Positions 1,183 through 63,132 of a DNA stretch of 64,000 nt are shown one piece after another. The first letter of the stretch is position 1; every line of letters begins with the position of its first letter. The notes under the pieces are model-generated. The model was not told the DNA's origin, did not search any database, and saw only the letters and a program-made list of their open reading frames with translations. The DNA is from an uncultured Candidatus Saccharibacteria bacterium (GTDB lineage: Bacteria > Patescibacteriota > Doudnabacteria > UBA920): NCBI GenBank assembly GCA_964505635.1, contig CAZDIP010000001.1:222412-286411 (forward strand), read 5' to 3'. A program made the translations under genes and the position numbers.

Positions 1183-2255
1183 GGTATCTTATTTTTTTCA
1201 CGTTAAGTTTTATTTCTTCAGCCTTACTAACCCACTGGGTCAGAAAACTGGCTTACAAATTTAATATTCTTGATCTTCCGAATGCAAACAGAAAAATCCA
1301 CAAAAAACCCATACCTTTGTTAGGAGGGTTGGGTATATTTGGATCCTTCTTTTTTATTGTATTTCTATATTTAATTTACAGTAAAGTGGATTTTTCAATT
1401 ATCCCCTTAAAATATTTTTACGGGATTTTGCTGGGGGGTGCTGTTTTAATAACCGGGGGAGCAATGGACGATAAATTTAACCTTCCCGCAAAAATCACCT
1501 GGATATTTCCAGCTCTGGCAAGCCTGATTGCCATTTATTTTGGCATAGGCGGCAATCTTACACAAATTTCTAATCCATTTGGGGGCGTGATTGATTTTAA
1601 TTTAACCCTGAACCTATTTAACTTTATAAATTTCAGTCTTGGATGGTTGGTGGTTTTTTTATGGTTAATGGGTATGATTTACACAACCAAATTCCTTGAT
1701 GGTTTAGACGGCTTAAGCAGCGGAATAAGTTTGATTGGCGGACTTACCTTGTTTGCGCTTTCATTGCTGCCGCATATCAATCAAAATATTACGGCAAGTT
1801 TAGCCATAATTTTTTGTGGAACCTTGGCAGGTTTTTTAATTTTTAACTTTCATCCAGCCTCAATTTTCTTAGGCGAAGGGGGAAGCACTTTACTGGGCTT
1901 TATTCTTGGTATACTTTCAATTATTCTAGGCGGAAAAATAGCTACCGCCCTTTTAGTAATGGGTATTCCCATACTTGATGTGGCCTGGGTTATTACAAGA
2001 CGGATTTGGTATAAAGGCAGTCCCTTTAAGGCCGACCGCAAACATTTACATTTTAGGTTACTGGATTTGGGATTTTCCCAACCTCAAGCCGTTGGAATAC
2101 TATGGTCAATATCCGGAATTTTTGGCTTTATGGCCATATTTTTACAATCTAAGGGTAAACTGATAGCTTTGGGCGGGGTTTTTGTAGTCATGCTGATTTT
2201 AGCTATTTCAGTCGTCTTGCTGTACAAACATAAGCATCCGTACATTGAAAAATAA
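1179..2255 (+). CDS. WecA/MraY-family polyprenyl-phosphate N-acetylhexosamine-1-phosphate transferase
   Basis: A polytopic membrane protein with the PIPLLGGLGIF, DDKFNL and NFINF...DGLDGLS motifs typical of the MraY/WecA family. Its start overlaps the upstream GT2 stop. Confidence 0.7.
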   Translation: MRYLIFFTLSFISSALLTHWVRKLAYKFNILDLPNANRKIHKKPIPLLGGLGIFGSFFFIVFLYLIYSKVDFSIIPLKYFYGILLGGAVLITGGAMDDKFNLPAKITWIFPALASLIAIYFGIGGNLTQISNPFGGVIDFNLTLNLFNFINFSLGWLVVFLWLMGMIYTTKFLDGLDGLSSGISLIGGLTLFALSLLPHINQNITASLAIIFCGTLAGFLIFNFHPASIFLGEGGSTLLGFILGILSIILGGKIATALLVMGIPILDVAWVITRRIWYKGSPFKADRKHLHFRLLDLGFSQPQAVGILWSISGIFGFMAIFLQSKGKLIALGGVFVVMLILAISVVLLYKHKHPYIEK

Positions 2256-2357
2256 CAATATTTATACGGTTGACTTAAACCTTTAAAACTGCTAAAATAT
2301 TAAAGTTAATTATTGACTTAGGCTGTCTACAGGTTGGGCGGCATTAATTACAAAAAG

Positions 2358-2666
2358 ATGAATTTCGCTATAATTCAAACCGGCGGAAAACAATATATTG
2401 TTAAAGCTGGTGACAAAATTCAAATAGAAAAGCTTAAATTAGGCACAGGAGACAGTGTTAAATTTGACAAGGTCTTGTTTACCTTTAACGGAAAGGATGT
2501 AGAAATCGGCAAACCTTATGTTGCCGGGTCTAAAGTTGAAGGTAAAGTAATTAAGCAAGCCAGGGCAAAAAAGATCCATGTCTTAAAATACAGGGCTAAA
2601 AGCAAATATAGGCGCAAAATCGGCCAAAGACAGTATTATACAGAAGTAGAAATTACAAAAATTTAA
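2358..2666 (+). CDS. rplU: 50S ribosomal protein L21
   Basis: The sequence MNFAIIQTGGKQYIVKAGD... is a typical L21 N-terminus with a basic C-terminus. I take the start at the internal Met of the 2334 ORF. Confidence 0.85.
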   Translation: MNFAIIQTGGKQYIVKAGDKIQIEKLKLGTGDSVKFDKVLFTFNGKDVEIGKPYVAGSKVEGKVIKQARAKKIHVLKYRAKSKYRRKIGQRQYYTEVEITKI

Positions 2667-2674
2667 AGTTTATA

Positions 2675-2705
2675 AACCGCCCATTACCAGGGCGGTTTAT
2701 TTTAT
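2675..2705. terminator. Rho-independent terminator (bidirectional, between rplU and the convergent methyltransferase gene)
   Basis: The stem aaccgccc/gggcggtt has loop attacca and is followed by a T-rich tract. Confidence 0.6.
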
Positions 2706-2709
2706 TATT

Positions 2710-3354
2710 TCAGAGCTTTGTAACTTCCCAAACTTCGCATCTTGGTAAAACATCAGCGACAAAATCCCATTCAGCATCTTTATAATTTAATTTTTTCGCA
2801 TTCAGCAAATCAACTCTTTTCATTTCACGTCTTAACAGCCTGACTTTATAACTTTTAGAACTTTTTAAATCATTGAGTAATTTTTTATAAGATTCCAGAC
2901 CATAAACAATTAAGTCGGTATAAATTAACATTCTGCCTCCACTTTTTAAAACCCTTAAAGCTTCTTGCAAATATTTTTTTCGCTCTGTATAAAAAACCAA
3001 TTTCGGATTTCCGCTCAGCAGTTTACGCTTTATAAAACCAGATAAATTCTTGACCAAAAGTTTTTTGCTTTCTCGATCCCATAACCAGTGCAAAGGGGCG
3101 GAAAAAAAATTTCCTACAATTATTTTATCAAATTCTCCTTGACCAAAAGGTAATTTTTTTGCATCGCAAATCTTGAAAGTACAAGAAAAAGTTTTTTTTG
3201 TATTCTTAAAATATTCCGCGATTTTTAGTTTAGCTCTAATAAGTCGCTGGTCGTTAACTTCTGCCAAAAAATATTCGTCCTCAGGTCTGAATTTAATATC
3301 ATATCTTAAAAAATACGGGTTTTCTCCGGCACCTAAGTCTAATATTTTTTCCAT
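2710..3354 (-). CDS. Class I SAM-dependent methyltransferase
   Basis: It has an LDLGAGENP glycine-rich SAM motif and an LKSGGRMLIYTD motif II-like segment. Confidence 0.6.
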   Translation of the reverse strand: MEKILDLGAGENPYFLRYDIKFRPEDEYFLAEVNDQRLIRAKLKIAEYFKNTKKTFSCTFKICDAKKLPFGQGEFDKIIVGNFFSAPLHWLWDRESKKLLVKNLSGFIKRKLLSGNPKLVFYTERKKYLQEALRVLKSGGRMLIYTDLIVYGLESYKKLLNDLKSSKSYKVRLLRREMKRVDLLNAKKLNYKDAEWDFVADVLPRCEVWEVTKL

Positions 3355-3966
3355 TTAAAATTCCCTTCGGCCTTCCATGGCTCTAGTTAGTGTTATTTCG
3401 TCCGCATATTCCAAATCACCACCCATAGGCAAACCACGGGCAATGCGCGTAATTGTAATGTTAGGGAGGTCGGATTTAATTCTTTTAGCCAAATGCATGG
3501 CCGTAGTTTCTCCTTCTAAAGAAGGGTTAGTAGCTAAAATGATTTCTTTAATTTGACTATTTTTTTCCTTCAATCTTACAATTAAGGACTCTATATTTAA
3601 TTTTTCAGGTCCGATCCCTTCAAGTGGATTTAAAACGCCTCCAAGCACATGGAATAATCCCCTAAAAGTACCCGCTTTGTCTATAGCTAACGCGTCCAAG
3701 GGCTCTTCCACCACGCATAAAATACTCTGTTCCCTGGTTTTATCTGAGCAAATCTCGCACGGGTCAGTTTCCACCATATTGTGGCAAATACCGCAAAACA
3801 CCACTCCGTTTTTTAAATTGCTTACTGCCGACGAAAGTTCTGCTAAATCTATATTGTCCCTTTTCAACAAAAAAAAGCCAAGTCTTTGAGCGGTTTTAGG
3901 GCCTATTCCAGGTAACTTGGAAAGCTCATTTATTAATTTTTGAAGAGAGCTTGGTAGTTTGGTCAT
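3355..3966 (-). CDS. recR: Recombination protein RecR
   Basis: It has an HhH segment (LSKLPGIGPKTAQRL), a C4 zinc finger (CGICHNM...CEIC) and a Toprim domain along the full length. Confidence 0.9.
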   Translation of the reverse strand: MTKLPSSLQKLINELSKLPGIGPKTAQRLGFFLLKRDNIDLAELSSAVSNLKNGVVFCGICHNMVETDPCEICSDKTREQSILCVVEEPLDALAIDKAGTFRGLFHVLGGVLNPLEGIGPEKLNIESLIVRLKEKNSQIKEIILATNPSLEGETTAMHLAKRIKSDLPNITITRIARGLPMGGDLEYADEITLTRAMEGRREF

Positions 3967-24828: not shown

Positions 24829-25422
24829 ATGTCTAACGATATTTTAAAAGAGATTCGGGAACTAACAGGGGCCGGGATTCTGGAAATAAAAAACGCCCTA
24901 AGCGAAAGCGGGCAAAATAAAGAAAAGGCGATTGAGCTTTTAAGAAAAAAAGGCGCGCTAAAAGCCGGAAAAAAAGCCGACAGGGTAGCCAAAGAGGGGA
25001 TTGTGGAAAGTTATATTCACCCCGGCGGAAGAGTTGGCGTGTTGCTGGAATTAAATTGCGAAACTGACTTTGTGGCCAGAACTGACGATTTTAAACAGCT
25101 TGCCAAAGACCTAGTCATTCATATTGCGGCTGCTAACCCGATTTATGTCCAAATTTCTGACGTTCCGGCTGAAGTCATAGAAAAAGAGAAAGAAATTTAT
25201 AAAGAACAAGCCAAGGCTGACGGCAAAGCTAAATCTGATGATATAATAAATAAAATGCTGGAAGGCAAGATTGCCAAATATTACGAAGAAGCCTGTTTAA
25301 TGGAGCAACCTTTCGTAAAAAACCCGGATATAAAAGTTAAAGACCTGCTTGCCCAGGCCATTTCTAAAACCGGAGAAAATTTGGTTGTTAAAAGATTTGC
25401 GAGATTTATCTTGGGTAACTAA
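24829..25422 (+). CDS. tsf: Elongation factor Ts (short form)
   Basis: It has the UBA-like N-terminus LRELTGAGILEIKNAL and lies downstream of rpsB. Confidence 0.85.
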   Translation: MSNDILKEIRELTGAGILEIKNALSESGQNKEKAIELLRKKGALKAGKKADRVAKEGIVESYIHPGGRVGVLLELNCETDFVARTDDFKQLAKDLVIHIAAANPIYVQISDVPAEVIEKEKEIYKEQAKADGKAKSDDIINKMLEGKIAKYYEEACLMEQPFVKNPDIKVKDLLAQAISKTGENLVVKRFARFILGN

Positions 25423-25484
25423 AAACAATTAACAAATAACTACCGCCCTTTTAGGGCTATAAGTTATTGGCCTTAGGTTGACGC

Positions 25485-26294
25485 TTGAGTTATCAAATGC
25501 TGCCAAATCTTATATTTCTGTTTTCAATTCTGGGAATTATCCTTCTGATTTTAAGGCGCTTGCCTCAAGCCGATAAAATTAACGAGCCAGAAACAGTAAC
25601 GCCCGAAAAACTCCTGTTCGCCAAGGGTTTGCCTGCCGAAGCCATCTCTAAAACCAAGGGTGCCATAAAATTATGGCTGAAAAAAATTTGGAATTTTATT
25701 TTAGAAGCAAAAGACCTAAAGCCTGCTAACCCCGTTGGGTATAGAATCAAGCAAATTTTCCACGCAAGCCGACCGGTCAAGCAACACAAGACAGATATAA
25801 GCCTTACCCAACCACAACAACAGGCACCTAGGCAAGATGAGGCATATTTTTTTGAACTGATAAAAACCCAGCCTAAAAATTTATCCAACTATAACTTGCT
25901 TGGAAAATATTATCTGGAAAATCAAAATTTTGCCGATGGTAAAGACATATACTTATACTTAAGCAACCACGAGCCCACGAATCCTGAATACTTGGGCAGG
26001 TTAGCATACAGCTGTTACAAGCTTGGGCAGTACGAACAAGCAGCGGATTACTATTCTAAATCTTTGGCTCTTGATTCAATCCAGCCAAACCGCTATTATA
26101 ACTTGGGTATTTGCATGCAGCATTTGGACAAAAACCAGGAAGCGATTGAGCCGTTTTATAAAGCCCTAGAACTGGATCCCCAAAACCCAAAATTTATAAA
26201 TACCCTGGCTAAAGCTTATGAAAAAATGAGTGAAAACGACAAAGCAGAAAAACTTTTTTTAAAGCTCAGGCAAATACAAACAAGTGAAGAATAA
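25485..26294 (+). CDS. TPR-repeat protein with N-terminal TM anchor
   Basis: It has an N-terminal hydrophobic helix and several TPR-like repeats (YYNLGICMQ, FYKALELDP). Confidence 0.5.
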   Translation: MSYQMLPNLIFLFSILGIILLILRRLPQADKINEPETVTPEKLLFAKGLPAEAISKTKGAIKLWLKKIWNFILEAKDLKPANPVGYRIKQIFHASRPVKQHKTDISLTQPQQQAPRQDEAYFFELIKTQPKNLSNYNLLGKYYLENQNFADGKDIYLYLSNHEPTNPEYLGRLAYSCYKLGQYEQAADYYSKSLALDSIQPNRYYNLGICMQHLDKNQEAIEPFYKALELDPQNPKFINTLAKAYEKMSENDKAEKLFLKLRQIQTSEE

Positions 26295-26315
26295 ATAAAC
26301 CCGCCAACTTTTGGT

Positions 26316-26391
26316 GCCGATGTAGCTCAGCTGGTAGAGCATCTCCATGGTAAGGAGAAGGTCTCCGGTTCAATCCCGGACATCGGCTCCA
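26316..26391 (+). tRNA. tRNA-Thr (GGU), CCA encoded
   Basis: A canonical cloverleaf: acceptor GCCGATG/CATCGGC, anticodon loop ATGGTAA, T-loop TTCAATC. An 8-bp long-range inverted repeat flanks it (cccgccaa 26301 / ttggcggg 26397). Confidence 0.9.
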
Positions 26392-26471
26392 GAAAATTGG
26401 CGGGTTTTTGTTTTTGTTGTATAATTCATTCATACGGCTCGCATGCCAAATAAACTTTAATTTTATAAAAT

Positions 26472-26990
26472 ATGGAGAATAATGATTTATTTCATAAAAA
26501 ATATTTGGGTGAATTCGTATACGGCGCAATGGACGGCACAGTTACGACTTTTGCCGTTGTGGCTGGCTCCATAGGCGCTTCTTTAAGCCCGACTATTGTT
26601 TTAATTTTAGGTTTTGCGAACCTTTTCGCGGACGGCTTTTCCATGGCCGCTTCCAACTACCTTTCTACTCAATCAAAAAACGATCTGCAAAACATTCAGG
26701 AAGAAAGTCCAATAAAAACCGCTCTGGCAACTTTTGTTTCTTTTATAACAGTAGGTTTTATACCTTTGTTTTCATTTGTAGTGTCGGCTACTAACTCAAA
26801 TACTGACAAGTGGACATTTAAACTTTCCATAATTTTAACCGGTGTTGCTTTTTTGCTAATAGGATTTGTGAAAGGTAAAGTCTCCGGCCGAGGGCCGGTT
26901 CGTTCCGCTTTGGAAACGCTTTTAATTGGCATGCTCGCGGCAAGCATAGCCTATGGCGTTGGAGTTTACCTTAGAATGCTTGTTGGGTAG
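26472..26990 (+). CDS. VIT1/CCC1-family (DUF125) membrane protein, putative Fe/Mn transporter
   Basis: It has the GAMDG motif and several TM segments. Confidence 0.6.
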
Positions 26991-26994
26991 TCAT

Positions 26995-27038
26995 ATTACC
27001 AAAATTAAAATACCGCAATGCTTGCGGTATTTTAATTT
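26995..27038. terminator. Bidirectional hairpin terminator (VIT gene / tRNA-Tyr)
   Basis: The stem taccgcaa/ttgcggta is flanked by A and T runs. Confidence 0.55.
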
Positions 27039-27123
27039 TGGTGGGCGGTGCAGGACTCGAACCTGCGAAGCCGTAAGGCACCTGATTTACAGTCAGGTGT
27101 AATTGCCGCTATACGAACCGCCC
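27039..27123 (-). tRNA. tRNA-Tyr (GUA), type II with long variable arm, CCA encoded
   Basis: The reverse complement gives acceptor GGGCGGT/ACCGCCC, anticodon loop CTGTAAA, a 14-nt variable arm and T-loop TTCGAGT. Confidence 0.85.
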
Positions 27124-27926
27124 ATACTTGTAAATTTTTTAAGTCTCTCTTCGTGTTTTTTGTTCTTAAAACCTATCTCGGTGATATATTTATTTATGTC
27201 CGATTTTCTGGTTAAGTATACACTATGTACACTAATTTTGGAAGGGCTGAAGTTTAGGTTTAAAAATGCCTGTCTAACATCCGCGAGCAGAAGTTTTGAA
27301 AGGTTGGAAAAAGAAATTTGTACCCCTTTATGCATTTTATAGACCGATCCGTCCGTATCGATTAAACCCCTTAAAACAGATTTTAAATATACTTTCCTCT
27401 TAAAAATCCAGGCAGGTATTTTAACCTGTGATTTGGTTTTATTATGAGCCATCCCTTGCCCTAAAAGCCATTTAACCGCTACTGAAGAGCCAAAATACAC
27501 AACTTGGTCGCCCCTTTTAGTGATAATTGTTTTTGGCTTTGAATTAAATACCTTTTTCATTAATTCTGAAACATGCGGGGCATACTTATCTTTTGTGCCT
27601 AACGTAACCGTGACTTGGGTTTTAGTAATATGACCGTCTCCTAAAATTATGCCTATTAATTCAGCTAAATCGCCGGAATATTTTTTTGGCAAAATAATAT
27701 TTTTATTTATATTATTATATCCGGCTTTTTTATCACGTAAAGTTTTTATATTTAGCCTAACTAATCTGTCATAAACGCTATTCTCTGCTAAGTCTAATAT
27801 TTTTGCAATCTCGTTTATGGCTTTATTTTGTTTGACATATAGAAATACAAGCTGTTGCTTGTTTTTTAAACATTCTTGTCTTGTCCATTTTCTGGCCATA
27901 TTTAGATAATATGTAAAAATTGACAT
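27093..27926 (-). CDS. LAGLIDADG homing endonuclease with N-terminal HTH domain (free-standing)
   Basis: It has two LAGLIDADG motifs (LIGIILGDGHI, LRGLIDTDGSV) and an N-terminal HTH (AINEIAKILDLAENSVYDRL). The 3' end overlaps the first 31 nt of tRNA-Tyr. Confidence 0.75.
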   Translation of the reverse strand: MSIFTYYLNMARKWTRQECLKNKQQLVFLYVKQNKAINEIAKILDLAENSVYDRLVRLNIKTLRDKKAGYNNINKNIILPKKYSGDLAELIGIILGDGHITKTQVTVTLGTKDKYAPHVSELMKKVFNSKPKTIITKRGDQVVYFGSSVAVKWLLGQGMAHNKTKSQVKIPAWIFKRKVYLKSVLRGLIDTDGSVYKMHKGVQISFSNLSKLLLADVRQAFLNLNFSPSKISVHSVYLTRKSDINKYITEIGFKNKKHEERLKKFTSMGGSYSGNYT

Positions 27927-28077
27927 TTCGTCAAATTTTTAATTAACCACTTCGGTATATTAATATCTTTCCTCTACTGACTCGTTTTGCATACAAAGAA
28001 AGCCATCCTGCCTAAAGTCCAGAGTGTGTTAAATTTTCTACAAAATATTATCTCTTACATTCTAAATCCTAAATTTT

Positions 28078-29334
28078 TTACGTTCCTTCCTGCCATGAGG
28101 CCAAATACTTTTTTTGCGCCGGGGTGAGTTCGTCTATTTTTATGTTCATAGCCACAAGCTTTAACCTTGAAACTTTCTCGTCAATTTCTTTGGGCACATC
28201 GTGCACTTTACCTTTTTCAAGTTCTTGATGATGCTTAGCCAGCCATTCGCACATTAAGGCCTGGTCGGCAAAACTTAAATCCATAACAGCGCTTGGGTGG
28301 CCTTCGGCTGCGGCCAAGTTCATTAAACGGCCTTCGCCAATAAGATAGATCTTTCGTCCATCTTTCACGGAGTATTCATGAAGATTAGGCCTTACTTCCT
28401 TATCGCTTGTCGCTAATCGCTCTAAATCTTTCTGATTTATTTCCACATTAAAATGCCCGCTATTGCCTAAAATAGCCCCGTCTTTCATAACAGCCATATG
28501 CTCTTTTACAATTACGTCCTTATTGCCCGTGACTGTAATAAAGACATCGCCCAAGCGCGCGGCTTTAAGCATTGGCATAACTTCAAAACCATCCATGGCA
28601 GCCTGGAGAGCGGGGAGAGGGTCAATTTCTGTTACTATAACTTTTGCGCCCATACCTTTAGCCCTTAAAGCAATGCCTTTTCCGCAATAACCATAACCAG
28701 CCACAACCACAGTCTTGCCGGCAAGTAAAATATTGGTTGCCCTAAATAAGCTGTCTAAGGTAGACTGGCCGGTACCGTAATAGTTGTCGAACATGTGCTT
28801 AGTCGGCGTGTCGTTTATTGCTACTACCGGAAATTTTAATTTACCGTCTTTAGCCATAGCTTTAAGGCGTATAACTCCGGTGGTAGTCTCTTCCTGGCCG
28901 GAAAAAATTTCTTTAAGCTGGCTTTTGCGTTCTTTATGAAGGACAGAAATTAAGTCCGCGCCGTCGTCTACTATAATTTGCGGGTGGAAGTTTAAAACCT
29001 TGTTCACGCACCAATAGTATTTTTCATCGCTAATGCCGCGCCAGGCAAAAACGTTTATGCCTTCTTCAGCCAAAGCCGCGGCTACATCGTCCTGGGTGGA
29101 AAGGGGATTAGAACCGCATAGCGCGACTATAGCGCCGCCTGCTTTTAGAGCTTTCATTAACACCGCGGTTTCTTTGGTTACATGCAAACAACAGGCAATT
29201 GTCAGGCCTTTGAAAGGCTGCTCTTTAGCAAATTCTTTTTTTACAATTTCTAAAACCGGCATTTCTTTTTCTGCAAGCGCGATTTTCATTTTACCCTGCT
29301 TGGCAAGAGAAGGATCTTTTACTTTAGATGACAT
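28078..29334 (-). CDS. ahcY: Adenosylhomocysteinase
   Basis: It shows full-length SAHH similarity, with an NAD-binding GxGxxG (VVAGYGYCGKG) and conserved catalytic segments. Confidence 0.9.
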   Translation of the reverse strand: MSSKVKDPSLAKQGKMKIALAEKEMPVLEIVKKEFAKEQPFKGLTIACCLHVTKETAVLMKALKAGGAIVALCGSNPLSTQDDVAAALAEEGINVFAWRGISDEKYYWCVNKVLNFHPQIIVDDGADLISVLHKERKSQLKEIFSGQEETTTGVIRLKAMAKDGKLKFPVVAINDTPTKHMFDNYYGTGQSTLDSLFRATNILLAGKTVVVAGYGYCGKGIALRAKGMGAKVIVTEIDPLPALQAAMDGFEVMPMLKAARLGDVFITVTGNKDVIVKEHMAVMKDGAILGNSGHFNVEINQKDLERLATSDKEVRPNLHEYSVKDGRKIYLIGEGRLMNLAAAEGHPSAVMDLSFADQALMCEWLAKHHQELEKGKVHDVPKEIDEKVSRLKLVAMNIKIDELTPAQKKYLASWQEGT

Positions 29335-29337
29335 AAA

Positions 29338-30378
29338 TTATATTTTACTATTTTTTAATGCTTGTAAATATTCTTGGGTTATACCTGGGCACAACATTCT
29401 AATTAGTGAAAAAGTTTTTTCTTCATACTCCGCCCAATCAGCCTGTTTAACTGCCGTCTGAGGCGCAGATAAAAATTCAGAAGCTTTTTTTAGCCAGACG
29501 TCATAGGGCCTCATGTAGGCCTCTTTGTCATACCACCCAAAAATACCTTCTTTACGCAAGGCTGACAGACTTAGCAAAGCAACATCCACGTTTTTTAATT
29601 CCAGCCCTTCCGCCCCCTGGCTATTGTTTGCCAAGTATACCAGACCCTTTGTTTTTTTAACATCTAGCCGGTCGGTAGGCGGCTGCCAAACTAAATAGGA
29701 AACAGACTCGCTTTTTACCGCCCCGGGATTTGTGGCAGTATTTTCGTACAGAGAATCTACAAGAATCAATTCGACGTCTTTTAAAAGATGACGGCTAACA
29801 GCTTCGGGGTACTTAAAAAGGCTATCCTTTATATCCCGCGCCCCGTCACGCAAAGCTTTAATTCCGCTAATAGGTTTAACAACGAAACTTCGACCGCTCT
29901 TTTCTTCCTTATAGGAATTCCCGGGTCTGGGAATAAGCATATCCACGCCAAACTGATTGACCAAGACCTCTGTCTCCCTTCTGACGGTTTCGTTCCACTT
30001 TTGAGAGGCTTCCATGTCTCTGCCGTAATCTAAAGCAAATTTCAAACCAGAACCGGCCGCCAAAGAAGCTGCGCCGGCAGCCAAACCTGACGCAAATCTC
30101 CTACGGTTTACCGGATTGCGTGAATGTTCTTCCGATTTTACTTCGGCAATTTGATTAGATCTTAAAAGCAAGCGCTCGGACTGCTCTGGGGTAAGACTGC
30201 CGCGGTTAGATTCAACAAATTTTTTAAAACGCCCTCTAACCTTTGACTCTATAAGCTTTCCGGATGTTGCTTTTAATATGTTGCCCAAATAATCAGACTG
30301 CGGCTTAGTGCTTGGATTTGCTTTTTTTGGCAAGTCTTCATCTGGCTCTTCATCAAGTTGATATATTTTTTCAGACAT
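29338..30378 (-). CDS. Hypothetical protein
   Basis: A 346-aa protein with an internal RRRFASGLAAGAASLAAG stretch and no recognised domain. Confidence 0.35.
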   Translation of the reverse strand: MSEKIYQLDEEPDEDLPKKANPSTKPQSDYLGNILKATSGKLIESKVRGRFKKFVESNRGSLTPEQSERLLLRSNQIAEVKSEEHSRNPVNRRRFASGLAAGAASLAAGSGLKFALDYGRDMEASQKWNETVRRETEVLVNQFGVDMLIPRPGNSYKEEKSGRSFVVKPISGIKALRDGARDIKDSLFKYPEAVSRHLLKDVELILVDSLYENTATNPGAVKSESVSYLVWQPPTDRLDVKKTKGLVYLANNSQGAEGLELKNVDVALLSLSALRKEGIFGWYDKEAYMRPYDVWLKKASEFLSAPQTAVKQADWAEYEEKTFSLIRMLCPGITQEYLQALKNSKI

Positions 30379-30566
30379 AAATACTTAATAAATATAGCAT
30401 TTTTCATGCGAAAAACCAATTTTACACATAAATAGATATATTGATTTATATTATACTTTATGTTAAAATATTCAAAGTAAGCTTTCATATTTGCCTGCAT
30501 TAGCTTCCGCCAAAGCGGACAGGCATCCGGTAGGAAAAAGGTTTTGTTCGCCCCGTCACTTTTCTG

Positions 30567-30756
30567 GCCAGCTTAGCTCATCTGGTAGAGCAACGGTTTT
30601 ACCTGCCCGCCAGTCGCCGAGTGCCGATGTAGCTCAGTTGGTAGAGCAACGGTTTTGTAAACCGTAGGTCGTCGGTTCAAACCCGACCATCGGCTCCAGG
30701 CGATCGGCAGGCGGGTAAACCGTAGGTGGCCGGTTCGAGTCCGGCAGCTGGCTCCA
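30567..30756 (+). tRNA. Split/intron-containing tRNA-Thr-like gene (outer), reconstructed anticodon UGU, CCA encoded
   Basis: Acceptor GCCAGCT (30567-73) / AGCTGGC (30746-52); D-arm 30576-91; anticodon stem ACGGT (30593-97) / ACCGT (30719-23); T-arm GCCGG-TTCGAGT-CCGGC (30729-45). A 114-nt insertion at 30601-30714 lies between anticodon positions 34 and 35. Joining the two parts restores the loop TTT|GTAA. Confidence 0.6.
30623..30698 (+). tRNA. tRNA-Thr (UGU), intact, nested inside the outer tRNA's insertion, CCA encoded
   Basis: Acceptor GCCGATG/CATCGGC, D-arm GCTCAGTTGGTAGAGC, anticodon loop TTTGTAA, T-arm GTCGG-TTCAAAC-CCGAC. Confidence 0.9.
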
Positions 30757-30889
30757 CTGCTTCGTCCGCCTAAGGCGGACTACGCAGTGCAAGCACATCG
30801 TTTTAAAGGATCAAGCGATGTAAATAAGACTGCCTGACGCCCAGGCAATCTGTACTAATCACTATTCACTAACAACTAATCGCTAGAAT

Positions 30890-31057
30890 ATGTCTCAAGA
30901 TCATTTACTTAACATGGAGTGCTCGGTTTGCCACAATATTAATTACCAAACCAAGCGCAACAAAAAAAGTTTGGGCGCGCAAAACAAAAAGCGCCTTGAA
31001 TTGCAAAAATATTGTAAGCACTGCAAAAAAAAGACTTTACACAAGGAAACGAAATAG
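30890..31057 (+). CDS. rpmG: 50S ribosomal protein L33
   Basis: A 55-aa ORF below the ORF-track cutoff. It has the pattern CSVCHNINYQTKRNKK...LELQKYCKHCKKKTLHKETK (C4 zinc ribbon, KNK, LELKKYC..TLH.E.K). Confidence 0.8.
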   Translation: MSQDHLLNMECSVCHNINYQTKRNKKSLGAQNKKRLELQKYCKHCKKKTLHKETK

Positions 31058-31133
31058 TTTAACTAATGACCGATAATTAATAACTTATAACTGGTTGCTT
31101 GTTATAAATTATAAGTTATCGGTTTATTACTTG

Positions 31134-31158
31134 GGGGGCGTCGTATAATGGTAGTATC
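31134..31158 (+). other. 5' tRNA-like fragment (acceptor strand + D-arm), near-duplicate of the tRNA-Trp 5' end
   Basis: GGGGGCG-TC-GTATAATGGTAGTAT matches the Trp sequence GGGGGGT-TC-GTATAACGGTAGTAC. Its acceptor strand GGGGGCG is complementary to CGCCCCT at 31408-14. Confidence 0.5.
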
Positions 31159-31241
31159 CGCCGACGCTAAAGCTGTAGCGGACAAGCAGCGGTCTCCGCC
31201 CCGCCTTTACAAACTTAAATATTATCTCCACGGCATCTGGT

Positions 31242-31315
31242 GGGGGGTTCGTATAACGGTAGTACAATGGTCTCCAAAACCATTTGCGAGGGTTCGACTC
31301 CTTCACCCCCTGCCA
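31242..31315 (+). tRNA. tRNA-Trp (CCA), CCA encoded
   Basis: Acceptor GGGGGGT/ACCCCCT (1G-72U), 3-bp D-stem, anticodon stem ATGGT/ACCAT with loop CTCCAAA, T-arm GAGGG-TTCGACT-CCTTC. Confidence 0.85.
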
Positions 31316-31390
31316 AACGCCGCGGAGCTATATTTCGGCCAATAAACCAAAACCGATTGCGTGCTTGCCCGACGAAGTCTTAACGAAGTC

Positions 31391-31418
31391 GGGGGTTCAA
31401 TTCCTACCGCCCCTGCCA
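31391..31418 (+). other. 3' tRNA-like fragment (T-arm + acceptor 3' strand + discriminator + CCA)
   Basis: GGGGG-TTCAATT-CCTAC-CGCCCCT-G-CCA, with one T-stem mismatch. It pairs with the 5' fragment at 31135-41. Confidence 0.5.
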
Positions 31419-31420
31419 AA

Positions 31421-31450
31421 AAAGTCCCGCTTAGCTGCGGGTCTTTTTTG
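31421..31450. terminator. Rho-independent terminator closing the rpmG-tRNA cluster
   Basis: An A-run, then stem cccgc/gcggg with loop ttagct, then a T6 tract. Confidence 0.6.
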
Positions 31451-31512
31451 TATACCCTTGTGGGTGTTCAAAACTTTTAATGTTATAATTTAATAAAGCA
31501 AATTTAACAAAA

Positions 31513-31995
31513 ATGATTAAAGCAATTTTGTCTGATTTCTCAGAGACAATTCTATTCCCAAAAAATATAAAAAATCATCATAATCTCAACGGCTTACACC
31601 ATGAACTAATGAGAGAGTATGGCGAATACAATGCTTGGGATTATTTTGTAATTAACGAGGAGTTGCTTAATTTTTACCAATCTCTTAAACCACAGTTGCC
31701 GTTATATGTTTTTACAACAGATACTGTCCAAGACCAACCACAAATAAAAGAACGGTTACTGGAAATTTTTGATGATGTTATTTCAGCTAAAGTCTATAAG
31801 ATTGACAAAAAAACACCTGAGGCTTATCAATTCATAGCACAAAAAATAAATCAAAACTCAGAGGAAATTTTATTTATTGATGATAGAGAAATTAATTTAG
31901 AACCTGCTACAAAGGCAGGGTTTCAAACACTACAATACATAGATAACGAGCAGTTGGTTAAAGATATTAAAAAACTAATTAACAGCCAAACTTAA
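31513..31995 (+). CDS. HAD-superfamily hydrolase
   Basis: A small protein with a C-terminal LFIDD motif (HAD motif IV). Confidence 0.45.
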   Translation: MIKAILSDFSETILFPKNIKNHHNLNGLHHELMREYGEYNAWDYFVINEELLNFYQSLKPQLPLYVFTTDTVQDQPQIKERLLEIFDDVISAKVYKIDKKTPEAYQFIAQKINQNSEEILFIDDREINLEPATKAGFQTLQYIDNEQLVKDIKKLINSQT

Positions 31996-32146
31996 CGCTG
32001 CTAACTCGATTTCTAACTCTTCAAGGCTCACAGTTCTAACCACATCCCACAGCCCTGCCATAAAAAACCTATCGGTTACCCGCATAGGTTTTTTATGATG
32101 GAATCTTTAACAAATGCTATAATATATAAAATAATTAATAATAATT

Positions 32147-32557
32147 ATGCAAATAAATTATTGGGCAGTAATTGTTTCGGCCATTGCTTCCATGGTCATA
32201 GGCAGCATTTGGTACGGGCCTTTGTTCGGCAAAATCTTTATGCGCGCCATTGGCATGGACCAGTGGAGCAAAGAGCGGCAGGAAGCGCAAAAAAAGAAAA
32301 TGGGCGTAACCTACTTTGTGCAGTTTGTCGCCAGCATGGTTATGTTTTACGCGCTCGCGCGGTTTATGCATGCTTCCGACGGTTTGGATATTAATGGGGG
32401 GATAAACGTGGCGCTGTGGACATGGGTTGGATTTGTAGCCCCGGTTAAACTCGGGGATGCTATTTGGGGCGGTAAAATGGTCATGTTTTGGCTCGGAGCC
32501 GGCAATATGCTTTTAACCCTTTTGGCCGCTGGCGTTATTTTAGGCGCCTGGCAATAA
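32147..32557 (+). CDS. Small integral membrane protein (DUF1761-like)
   Basis: Four predicted TM helices. The overlapping ORFs at 32095 and 32135 are frame artefacts. Confidence 0.5.
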   Translation: MQINYWAVIVSAIASMVIGSIWYGPLFGKIFMRAIGMDQWSKERQEAQKKKMGVTYFVQFVASMVMFYALARFMHASDGLDINGGINVALWTWVGFVAPVKLGDAIWGGKMVMFWLGAGNMLLTLLAAGVILGAWQ

Positions 32558-32573
32558 AAAGAGGCGTTATTTT

Positions 32574-32603
32574 AAAGGCTCACACGGAGTGAGCCTTTAA
32601 AAA
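32574..32603. terminator. Palindromic terminator element, copy 1 of a repeated motif
   Basis: ttttaaaggctcacaCggagtgagcctttaaaa. Copy 2 at 61328 differs by 1 nt. Confidence 0.55.
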
Positions 32604-32648
32604 TGCCTTAAATTTGGCTGTTTTTTAAGCAAGGGTTATAATGCCGAT

Positions 32649-32897
32649 ATGGGAAAAATGAAAAAAAGCAAAGGTTTTATCCTTTTGGCTCTTTTACTTG
32701 CAGTCTTAATTTTAGCCGTGTTTTTTAGTTTGTATTTTAGGCCTAAAGATAAAATAAAAAATCAGGGGTCGGCGGCAAAAAAAGCGCAAGAAAATCTCCA
32801 GGAAAGCAAAAAAGACCTTGACCAATATCAAACTAAAATTAACGAGGAATTAAAAACTCAGGATTCAGAAAGCAAATTTAATTCAGCTCAATATTAA
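32649..32897 (+). CDS. Small membrane-anchored hypothetical protein
   Basis: It has an N-terminal TM helix and a charged coiled C-terminus. Confidence 0.4.
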   Translation: MGKMKKSKGFILLALLLAVLILAVFFSLYFRPKDKIKNQGSAAKKAQENLQESKKDLDQYQTKINEELKTQDSESKFNSAQY

Positions 32898-32900
32898 ATT

Positions 32901-33542
32901 ATGAAAGAAACAGGGTTATACCAAACAATTGGCAGAGAAAGTTTGGCGGAAAAAGTTCGTGATATGAACTTAGAAGACTATTACGCCTGCCAATATTTTG
33001 GCCGTCATTTGCCGGAATGGGAAAAATTAAAGCCAGAGGCCATAATTATAGCTCCGCAAGCAGCAACTGTTTACCAACCGCTAATAAAAAAAATGTGGCA
33101 AGGTCTTTATAATTTTAAAACTGTTCCTAAATTTTTTAATATTGACCCAAATGCGCTGGTAAAAAATTTACAACTGCCGAAACATCCCGGATTAAAAAAT
33201 ATTTACAGGGCTTTAATATTTGATGACAGCAGTAAATTAAAGAAACAAAATGAACTGCCAACACAATTCCAACCTAATGATAATTTAAGAATATCGTTAG
33301 ACAACCCTTCACTGATTAATATTGCTTTATTTTTACATCAAAACGGGGTAAAAGAAATATGGATGGACTGGGGAAAAAATTTATGGCACCCTGGTTCCCA
33401 AGCAATTTTACAAAGAAAAGTAAACAAAGATCAACTTGAGTTAGTACCTAACAGTAATAGACCTGAAGCTTTAAGGACATCAAAAAAAATGAGAGAACTG
33501 GCGGATCTTACAATAAAAATGCTTAATAACAAAATAATTTAA
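32901..33542 (+). CDS. Hypothetical protein
   Basis: A 213-aa ORF with no motifs. Confidence 0.35.
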   Translation: MKETGLYQTIGRESLAEKVRDMNLEDYYACQYFGRHLPEWEKLKPEAIIIAPQAATVYQPLIKKMWQGLYNFKTVPKFFNIDPNALVKNLQLPKHPGLKNIYRALIFDDSSKLKKQNELPTQFQPNDNLRISLDNPSLINIALFLHQNGVKEIWMDWGKNLWHPGSQAILQRKVNKDQLELVPNSNRPEALRTSKKMRELADLTIKMLNNKII

Positions 33543-39561: not shown

Positions 39562-39815
39562 AAAATCCATAAAATTAAAACGCCCGATTTATACTCTAGA
39601 CATAACGGGCGTTTTAATCAGGTTTACTCTGGATTCCGGCCTTCCGCCGGTTGGCGGAAGGCCGCGGGATGACATGTTGGCCTTGAATTACGAAACTCAA
39701 TATTGTTCGACTTTCCGCCAAAGGCGGACAGGTAAGGAGAATGATATCGAGTAATTAAGCCAAAATTTTAGATTCTCCACAAGTTCGAAAACTAAAATTT
39801 TTCTGTTTCGTGTAT

Positions 39816-63043: not shown

Positions 63044-63132
63044 AAAACTCTTTAATATTCGAGCTTGTCGAGAATCTAAAAATTTTAAACTTCCCGACTC
63101 TCCGCTCAGGCGGATCGCTTGAAAAATAATAA

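Follow-up and report, generated by a model that had tools for sequence, protein, structure and literature searches.

A tRNA-Thr gene nested within a second tRNA-Thr gene in Patescibacteria, and the probable insertion cassette that carries it

Organization of the nested tRNA locus

Positions 30567–30756 of the window (the whole 64-kb stretch of DNA analysed here) hold an intact tRNA-Thr(UGU) gene on a base-paired stalk, the two together lying inside a second tRNA-Thr-like gene. The sequence elements that an initial annotation had listed for this segment all match the sequence. The features of the locus and of its immediate surroundings are as follows.

30441..30469, + strand: promoter-like site TTGATT, 17 nt, TG-n-TAAAAT; a consensus match only, presumed start of the precursor
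30493..30546, + strand: probable decayed 5′ half of an older tRNA-Thr(UGU) ('level 0'); family D1; ends GGTTTTG (through G35)
30506–30519: TCCGCCAAAGCGGA hairpin interrupting the level 0 5′ half
30547..30566, + strand: TTCGCCCCGTCACTTTTCTG, likely the 5′-arm remnant of an older cassette that would have brought the present outer tRNA
30567..30601, + strand: outer tRNA-Thr, 5′ part (positions 1–35); A at 30601 versus G35 in related copies
30602..30622, + strand: cassette 5′ arm CCTGCCCGCCAGTCGCC (30602–30618) and 4-nt linker GAGT
30623..30698, + strand: inner (cargo) tRNA-Thr(UGU) with encoded CCA (ARAGORN, Rfam); taken as the functional gene
30699..30715, + strand: cassette 3′ arm GGCGATCGGCAGGCGGG; base-paired with the 5′ arm in the rod; inverted repeats I1 and I19
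30716..30756, + strand: outer tRNA-Thr, 3′ part (positions 36–76, including CCA); family D2; 76% identical to the inner 3′ half
30755..30789, + strand: hairpin with 17-nt arms around TCCGCCTAAGGCGGA, directly 3′ of the outer CCA; inverted repeat I2

A single tRNA is detected within 30567–30756 by ARAGORN and Rfam. This is the inner tRNA-Thr(UGU), which is called by both (76.7 bits against a gathering score of 29) and which has the attributes expected under RF00005: an above-threshold cloverleaf, a 7-nt loop UUUGUAA with U33, and an encoded CCA. The outer tRNA as encoded is called by none of the tools run (ARAGORN, Rfam, and ARAGORN with introns allowed, a mode that the initial annotation had recommended). 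When 30601–30714 is removed in silico, the outer parts join into a perfect tRNA-Thr(tgt) of 76 nt, in which CCA is present and 21 of 21 stem pairs are in place; its loop reads UUUGUAA with these boundaries, which are those of the initial annotation, and UUUAUAA with the boundaries common to the wider family described below.

The minimum free energy fold of 30560–30760 is a nested cloverleaf (−99.3 kcal/mol, z = −5.8, with none of 200 shuffles as low), which bears out the nested folding proposed at the outset. The stalk had been described as two short flanking helices; it is indeed present, but it is longer than this, and in the predicted fold it links the outer anticodon stem with the inner acceptor stem as a near-continuous rod, made up in that order of two 7-bp segments separated by a bulged U, a 3-bp segment bounded by C.A and A.C mismatches, and a last segment of 6 bp. 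The inner and outer copies have identical 20-nt stretches in common. A single promoter-like site (30441–30469) precedes the nested tRNAs, and none is seen between 30470 and 30623, inside the nested structure, or between the outer halves.

The hairpin at 30755–30789 belongs to a small TCCGCCTAAGGCGGA-type hairpin family that is also found inside dead outer tRNAs elsewhere. At three other loci (L121, L143 and L152; loci are designated L followed by a number), outer copies have a hairpin of this type in the anticodon loop or the T loop, and L124 has the variant TCCCGCAAAGCGGGA.

A recurrent cassette within tRNA genes

Two scans reveal that the arrangement recurs. The first covered one genome per species and sought a tRNA D arm too closely followed by the start of a second tRNA, yielding at least 120 loci. 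Most of the matches listed are partial 5′ tRNA copies preceding an intact tRNA, and about a dozen of those listed are nested tRNAs on a stalk like that of the window, nearly all of them in Patescibacteria (CPR) bins; in one of these, from a Kerfeldbacteria bin (L013), the stalk is almost identical to the window's and both tRNAs are Thr(GGU). In the second scan, of metagenome contigs, 35 loci were found in which the 17-nt 5′ arm of the window's cassette has GGCAGG 72–102 nt after it. Of these 35 metagenome loci, 33 have the identical 17-mer, as does L013 (the other two, L131 and L135, look like products of chance or decay), and it occurs once in the 64-kb window. The metagenome loci, L013 and the window together provide 25 distinct tRNA-hosted copies, from Patescibacteria (CPR) metagenomes, with the consensus CCTGCCCGCCAGTCGCC-NNNN-tRNA-GGCNNNN-GGCAGGCGGG. 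The arms are identical across lineages in which the RpsB and Tsf proteins are only 38–71% identical to those of the window. Viral contigs contain six matches to the 17-mer, which look like chance: five are in GC-rich DNA (60–69% G+C), and none has an adjoining tRNA or partner arm.

These copies have several features in common. First, the insertion points are at or beside the loops of the folded tRNA: in the anticodon loop in 12 of 25 (flanks TTTG-cassette-TAA, or ATG-cassette-GTAA in Thr(GGU)), in the D arm in another 12 (GGTAGA-cassette-GCA, and once GGTA-cassette-GAGC), and in the T loop in one (L140, TTC-cassette-GATT, a tRNA-Pro within a tRNA-Pro). No target sequence is common to these sites, the flanks being AGA/GCA, TTG/TAA, ATG/GTA and TTC/GAT. 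Second, the nested loci all fold as a cloverleaf on a rod on a cloverleaf, and the mismatches kept in the rod (U.G and C.A) hint at recognition by a protein. Third, in 25 of 25 copies cargo and host run in the same direction and their anticodons match (the hosts being Thr UGU, CGU or GGU, and Pro GGG), a regularity that is partly built into the searches because the first needed two tRNA D arms and the second an exact 17-mer with a tRNA-sized cargo. Finally, empty hairpin copies of the cassette are found outside tRNAs in L122, and inside already dead outer copies in L003, L043, L070 and L125.

The boundaries of the cassette can be placed by comparison of these sites. Only the limits CCTGCC...GGCAGGCGGG excise precisely at all three site classes, and removal of this segment restores perfect tRNAs in L128, L133, L136, L140 and L145; the insertion is therefore precise and without target duplication. 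In the window these limits correspond to 30602–30715. The 114-nt length given for the insertion at 30601–30714 stands, as does the perfect tRNA-Thr(tgt) that its removal leaves, but the restored UGU anticodon depends on which boundaries are used. Nine other UGU/CGU anticodon-loop copies have G35, the window with A30601 being the sole exception, and because A replaces G35 the outer loop is UUUAUAA (anticodon UAU) with the family boundaries. The outer UGU is recoverable only by borrowing the last G of the cassette.

Occupancy of orthologous genes and decay of the outer tRNAs

Relatives have in common the gene cluster rpsB-tsf-TPR-tRNA-Thr(GGU)-tRNA-Tyr-tRNA-Thr(UGU)-rpmG-tRNA-Trp. In the window, L138, L144, L146, L149 and L154, the anticodon loop of the Thr(UGU) gene carries the cassette, and in L129 the D arm of that gene does; the Thr(GGU) gene is interrupted at its anticodon loop in L013 and L152, and at its D arm in L133. 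The other Thr gene is uninterrupted in the window (Thr(GGU) at 26316), L013, L129, L133, L138, L144, L146, L149 and L154, and was not found in the short L152 locus. The presence of the cassette therefore varies between orthologous genes, and the same gene has been struck at different positions. A search for orthologues through neighbouring genes gave no homologue of the upstream 346-aa ORF except itself, and the rpmG product was not on record.

The initial annotation had named decay of the outer halves in relatives as an outcome that would speak against a retained outer tRNA, and such decay is what was found. The inner tRNA is intact in all 25 copies, with 20–21 of 21 stem pairs and CCA. By contrast, only seven outer tRNAs keep all 21 stem pairs (L013, which however has C33 and no CCA, L128, L133, L136, L140, L145 and the window), six are damaged with 17–20 (L123, L130, L144, L146, L149 and L154), and at the remaining loci, 12 of the 25, the outer copy is dead, being truncated or carrying further hairpins. 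The orthologous pair L138 and L154 is informative. Their tRNA-Tyr and tRNA-Trp genes are 100% identical, Thr(GGU) matches at 73 of 76 positions, rpmG is ~93% identical, and the cassette and cargo are identical over ~109 nt. The outer 5′ halves are ~40% identical and unrecognisable in L138, and the outer 3′ halves differ by four substitutions in 30 nt and an 11-nt deletion in the acceptor strand. Judged from these comparisons, the outer halves diverge like unconstrained spacer, whereas the functional tRNAs are conserved.

Cargo and host lineages

The nearest relatives of the window's inner tRNA are the cargo tRNAs of other cassettes (0.92–0.93 identity), and over its first 28 bases it does not differ from stand-alone Thr(GGU) genes. 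The outer tRNA is nearest to other outer tRNAs (L128, 0.86; L146, 0.79), and it has the acceptor stem GCCAGC/GCTGGC in common with the uninterrupted native Thr(UGU) gene of L133, whose own nearest match is the L146 outer (0.88). Because inner and outer tRNAs cluster separately, cargo and host represent two tRNA lineages that differed before they met, and the differences between the two in the window probably predate the insertion. The compensatory changes between the two tRNAs had been taken as a sign that the outer halves were maintained; this argument falls away, since the outer tRNA resembles the uninterrupted native Thr(UGU) of relatives and the inner one belongs to a separate cassette lineage.

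Nesting reaches three levels in L033, L013 and L143/147 and, probably, also in the window. In L033 two 5′ halves are stacked with a single 3′ level, L013 has an additional decayed Thr(GGU)-like 3′ part downstream, and the 'outer' tRNA of L143/147 is preceded by ...GCGGTATCG/CCCGCCCGCCAGA, corresponding to an older host and arm. The Doudnabacteria bins L007 and L033 contain the same two tRNA types with their roles swapped. In the window, 30493–30546 is 78% identical to the outer 5′ half when an 18-nt hairpin block (the TCCGCC hairpin) is left aside, and the local alignment score of this level 0 copy was matched by 17 of 2872 random windows (p ~0.006). On its 3′ side is TTCGCCCCGTCAC, which resembles the arm of the L003 element, and TCGCCCCGTC is found both in 30547–30566 and in the 5′ arm of L003's nested element. 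Neither a matching 3′ arm nor a 3′ remnant of the level 0 gene was found downstream of the outer tRNA. Because a decayed 5′ half and arm-like sequence lie upstream, the window's outer tRNA was itself probably the cargo of an earlier insertion.

Candidate enzymes and similar elements

Clustering of the ORFs at 47 loci gave mostly conserved-synteny families (TPR, tsf, rpsB and ABC) and no recurrent transposase beside the cassette. Small GIY-YIG ORFs of one family are present at four distinct loci (five contigs), ~250 bp from the cassette in L132 and L137/148, and a LAGLIDADG ORF lies within the window's tRNA cluster. Phage T4 SegB is a free-standing homing endonuclease encoded in a tRNA gene cluster, and the nearby LAGLIDADG and GIY-YIG ORFs could in a similar manner drive the spread of a neighbouring tRNA allele. 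These ORFs are a lead only: most of the 25 loci have no homing-endonuclease ORF in the available flanking DNA, and the GIY-YIG loci are too few for a link. Two further modes of cutting or targeting were rejected. The sequence TTAC is a known target of the IS200/IS605 family, and GTAA in the Thr anticodon loops complements it, but the D-arm and T-loop flanks have no common tetranucleotide. An RNase III-type cut at the boundaries of the initial annotation would, by our own reasoning from the fold, have the 2-bp offset but leave 5′ overhangs, which is the wrong polarity.

MITEs, REP sequences, Rickettsia palindromic elements and mitochondrial GC clusters are small non-autonomous palindromic elements. 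The cassette resembles these and other hairpin elements (PMC2800124) in being short, GC-rich within an AT-rich genome, self-pairing at its ends and devoid of a protein, and in lying both inside and between genes; it differs in that its loop carries a complete tRNA gene, that it targets tRNA genes without target duplication, and that the window has a single copy. As regards a MITE, terminal inverted repeats are present (the 17-nt ends match at 13 of 17 positions), but a target-site duplication is absent, exact tRNAs being restored in the five loci listed above, and on that ground this classification was rejected; we find one copy in 64 kb and, in the 47 loci, no recurrent adjoining transposase. 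Phages and genomic islands are said to integrate into tRNA genes by means of tyrosine integrases. The cassette is like such elements in that anticodon and T loops are targeted and the incoming DNA preserves tRNA function, but those measure kilobases, carry an integrase gene, rebuild just the 3′ part of the tRNA and leave att sites as direct repeats, whereas here a whole tRNA lies within a 114-bp insert in a nested, split host. A tRNA-targeting integrative element was rejected, the insert having no ORF and the duplicated tRNA parts being nested and not att repeats. By analogy, the way the cassette works would appear closest to that of a small palindromic selfish element, with the integrating-element logic of restoring tRNA function added. 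Searches of open-access full text yielded no account of one tRNA nested within another, or of a cassette like the window's, which is apparently undescribed.

A proposed history of the locus

We think it likely that a small tRNA-carrying cassette disrupted the resident tRNA-Thr(UGU) gene and functionally replaced it. Of the readings put forward initially, recent targeted insertion is the one that the comparisons favour, the cassette being discrete and recurrent, variable at orthologous genes, and present at three tRNA positions. It looks like a tiny gene-replacing mobile element, not a new kind of intron.

From these features we infer its transcription, processing and route of insertion. The segment 30602–30715 would be one copy of a ~110-bp non-autonomous cassette in which a complete tRNA gene is enclosed by two GC-rich arms of imperfect complementarity; it would have inserted into the resident tRNA-Thr(UGU) at the anticodon loop, in the same orientation. 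The resident gene itself was probably brought by an older cassette, with a decayed 5′ half left upstream. Because there is a single promoter-like site upstream and none inside, the cargo most likely uses the resident promoter, and the promoterless cassette would be read from there within a single long precursor transcript that also takes in the relic and the outer 5′ half. In this precursor the arms are predicted to fold into the rod and so isolate the cargo tRNA as its own folding unit, which would matter because the inner and outer copies contain identical 20-nt stretches. RNase P and 3′ processing would then free the cargo tRNA, perhaps after cleavage of the rod, and it would take over the function of the broken gene, of which the outer halves would be the remains. 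We propose that those in the window are still pairing-competent because the insertion is recent, although A already replaces G35. The same-anticodon rule fits selection, because an insertion that kills a needed tRNA would survive only with a replacement. Possible drivers of insertion include a transposase or nuclease acting in trans, or the nearby free-standing homing endonucleases.

Alternative explanations

It is unlikely, in our judgement, that the cassette is instead a new protein-dependent bacterial RNA intron, with an endonuclease that recognises the rod and cuts both strands at its base, a ligase that joins the exons, two tRNAs from each precursor, and spread possibly by reverse ligation and reverse transcription. 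The three positions in or beside the loops of the folded tRNA do recall the archaeal introns of Thermoproteales (PMC4090602). Placement at or next to loops, together with the common orientation of all copies, is a pattern that an RNA-level process would also give. Excision is exact to the nucleotide, the cloverleaf-rod-cloverleaf fold is general among nested loci, distant lineages keep the same arm sequence and its fixed mismatches, and seven of the 25 outers, the window's included, keep all stems. However, outer genes decay freely, and hairpin-only copies within tRNA genes are seen only in outers already dead. The same-anticodon replacement tRNA in every tRNA-hosted copy would serve no need in a spliced host, an argument that loses some force through the search bias, and with the family boundaries the window's outer anticodon would be UAU. 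We know of no splicing endonuclease in bacteria, nor of any archaeal intron that contains a tRNA, and among seven proteins (four from the window and three GIY-YIG ORFs from elsewhere) none has a Pfam match to a splicing endonuclease or RNA ligase. If this minority reading were true, it would represent the first protein-dependent tRNA intron system in bacteria.

Known intron types fit no better. A bulge-helix-bulge intron was rejected since neither the minimum free energy fold nor either of two manual registers has two 3-nt bulges 4 bp apart; at the foot of the continuous rod the two cassette boundaries are juxtaposed, with an offset of 2 bp around a single bulged U in the window. Group I introns in the anticodon loops of bacterial tRNAs, including those of Patescibacteria, are 184–894 nt long and have a ribozyme core (PMC13011429), and a 2026 survey of Patescibacteria tRNA introns covers group I introns only. 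The present case is similar in that tRNA genes of the same phylum are interrupted in the anticodon loop (33/34 to 36/37 in the group I introns) and that standard finders miss the host (PMC13011429), but 76 of the 114 nt of the cassette are tRNA, it is also found in D arms and a T loop, and its hosts decay. The early view that the insertion is too short for a group I intron holds: only 38 nt of it are non-tRNA, and Rfam gives no match other than tRNA, either with E up to 1 in 25000–33000 or at the gathering score in the whole window. With decaying outer genes in relatives and no known splice motif or ribozyme, the intron reading of the initial annotation gains no positive support. We regard as quite unlikely a related proposal, in which the rod is the recognition element of an undiscovered CPR RNA cleavage-ligation system; the cassette would be excised from the D arm, anticodon or T loop, the exons sealed, the excised piece made into a second tRNA, and the element spread through an RNA intermediate.

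A local origin with no mobile element, by duplication or gene conversion of the resident tRNA into an existing hairpin or by unequal recombination of tandem copies, seems very doubtful as a general account. It would explain why inner and outer tRNAs have the anticodon and often the anticodon stem in common, and it accounts for some individual loci: inner and outer are at least 92% identical in L154 and L152, the two 5′ levels and one 3′ level of L033 are as expected from unequal recombination, and a hybrid T stem in L123 points to conversion between copies. It does not account for identical arms in distant lineages, with ribosomal proteins only 38–71% identical, for orthologous genes struck at different positions, or for the derivation of the window's cargo and host from different tRNA lineages, and we found no simple rearrangement that turns tandem copies into nested ones.

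That the outer gene specifies an unligated split tRNA, its halves paired through the acceptor stem, anticodon stem and rod after release of the inner tRNA, is highly improbable. The halves are pairable (21 of 21 stem pairs, with the rod holding them together) and the outer gene encodes CCA, but the break falls within the anticodon. Escherichia coli ThrRS recognises G35 and U36, and with a break at this place both decoding and recognition of G35/U36 by ThrRS would be lost. In addition, ~38 nt of arm would be left on the halves, the 3′ half has no separate promoter, and the outer halves decay in relatives; this second reading of the initial annotation also goes without positive support. Nanoarchaeum reportedly has split tRNAs, and the likeness is that complementary sequences join two tRNA halves; unlike those tRNAs and archaeal introns, the present locus has a bacterial host, halves on one transcript, and host genes that are not maintained. 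A Nanoarchaeum-type split tRNA was rejected, the halves being 114 nt apart on the same strand with no promoter-like site between them. Finally, an assembly error (a chimeric or collapsed tRNA repeat), which had been raised as a possibility and which the identical 20-nt stretches might have produced by misleading an assembler, is effectively excluded because the same architecture and arms recur in more than 30 independent contigs and bins from different studies, with differing cargo and host sequences.

Implications

If the preferred reading of a tRNA-carrying insertion cassette is true, the locus would illustrate a minimal selfish element of ~110 bp that breaks an essential, strongly transcribed gene and supplies a working copy of it; the cassette would therefore gain expression and could not be lost. 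Its insertion would be precise, without duplication, and aimed at structured sites in tRNA genes, and repeated invasions would give rise to nested layers of dead tRNA genes. The locus would also provide a natural example of a tRNA matured from within another folded tRNA. For the Patescibacteria, such cassettes would explain a class of split or partial tRNA matches in their genomes, and would bear on tRNA annotation and on completeness scores that are based on tRNA counts.

Gene order around the nested tRNAs

The tRNA neighborhood of the window departs from that of its relatives. In the relatives, the genes for tRNA-Thr(GGU), tRNA-Tyr and tRNA-Thr(UGU) lie on the same strand with spacings of about 100–900 nt depending on the locus. 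In the window, unlike these, tRNA-Tyr is inverted, and it is separated from Thr(UGU), the site of the nested tRNAs, by a LAGLIDADG-type ORF, ahcY and an orphan ORF. The features concerned are:

27039–27123, minus strand: tRNA-Tyr, adjoining the LAGLIDADG-type ORF
27093–27926, minus strand: free-standing LAGLIDADG-type ORF (Pfam LAGLIDADG_3, 1.8e-12)
29338–30378, minus strand: orphan 346-aa ORF, immediately upstream of the nested tRNAs

The final 31 bases of the LAGLIDADG-type ORF overlap the start of tRNA-Tyr. A search of 5.8 billion proteins with the 346-aa product returned itself and no other homologue, and a Pfam scan gave no match.

Small GIY-YIG nuclease ORFs of 81–100 aa are present at several of the loci recovered in the genome and metagenome scans (L-numbers); three of them were scanned against Pfam and gave E values between 1e-15 and 1e-16:

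L132, 1249–1534: about 250 bp from the cassette (the tRNA-bearing insert)
L137, 2021–2267 (the same as L148, 9421–9667): about 250 bp from the cassette
L143, 2279–2582, and L011, 5259–5526: 1.7–4 kb away

At L134 (positions 1960–3748), ARAGORN reports neither of the expected genes for tRNA-Thr(GGU) and tRNA-Trp after the cassette-bearing Thr(UGU) gene and tRNA-Tyr. Some other element may interrupt these two genes, such as the group I intron that has been reported at 36/37 of Thr(GGU) in this phylum (PMC13011429).

Small hairpins and partial tRNA copies

A family of small hairpins, TCCGCC-n(2–6)-GCGGA, is represented at five sites in the window, with none expected by chance:

30506–30519
30765–30779
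39643–39658
39714–39728
63101–63114

Hairpins of the TCCGCC type also occupy anticodon or T loops of the decayed outer tRNAs of L121, L143 and L152; L124 carries the variant TCCCGCAAAGCGGGA. The sequence TAAACTCCA often follows these hairpins. At 39714–39745 the hairpin TCCGCCAAAGGCGGA is succeeded by CAGGTAAGGAGAA, and 11 bases of the latter, GGTAAGGAGAA, are identical to the 3′ part of the anticodon arm of the window's tRNA-Thr(GGU); this match could be a tRNA relic, or simply a ribosome-binding site.

Among the matches listed, many intact tRNA genes of Bacteroidota have, upstream of them, an incomplete duplicate of their own 5′ part (L009, L016, L019, L021, L029, L034, L038, L046, L076, L078, L080, L081 and L114), the D loop of the duplicate being replaced by a hairpin (TCCCGATAGCTATCGGGA or similar). 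Truncated tRNA copies are arrayed in L006, L045, L065 and L095, again among the matches listed, and in L066 a Thr fragment has its positions 9 and 10 separated by CCTGCCTGCCGGCAGGCAGG.

Possible exchange of cargo, and nesting beyond the cassette family

The only non-Thr copy of the cassette (L140, 520–638) places a tRNA-Pro(GGG) inside the T loop of another tRNA-Pro(GGG). Its cargo is bordered by GC... and ...AAAGCGGCTCCA, which resemble the termini of a Thr tRNA carried there earlier and suggest that the cargo can be exchanged. In two Doudnabacteria bins, the same two types of tRNA-Thr(CGU) appear in swapped roles: L007 has the GCCGGCG type as its outer tRNA and the GCCGACG type as its inner one, and in L033 the arrangement is the opposite. 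The arms at both loci are CCCCCACACCAAAT and ATTTGGTGTGGGGG, with GTAAA on either side, possibly a 5-bp duplication; the window's cassette family, in contrast, has no flanking duplication.

Finally, nested or stalk-borne tRNAs with unrelated arms are found, among the matches listed, in L011, L017, L040, L083, L108, L113 and L119, with identities Ile(UAU), Ala(UGC), Val(UAC) and Lys(CUU); in L108 one tRNA apparently lies within the T loop of another. Given these unrelated arms and other tRNA identities, the nested-tRNA architecture is wider than the single cassette family of the window.
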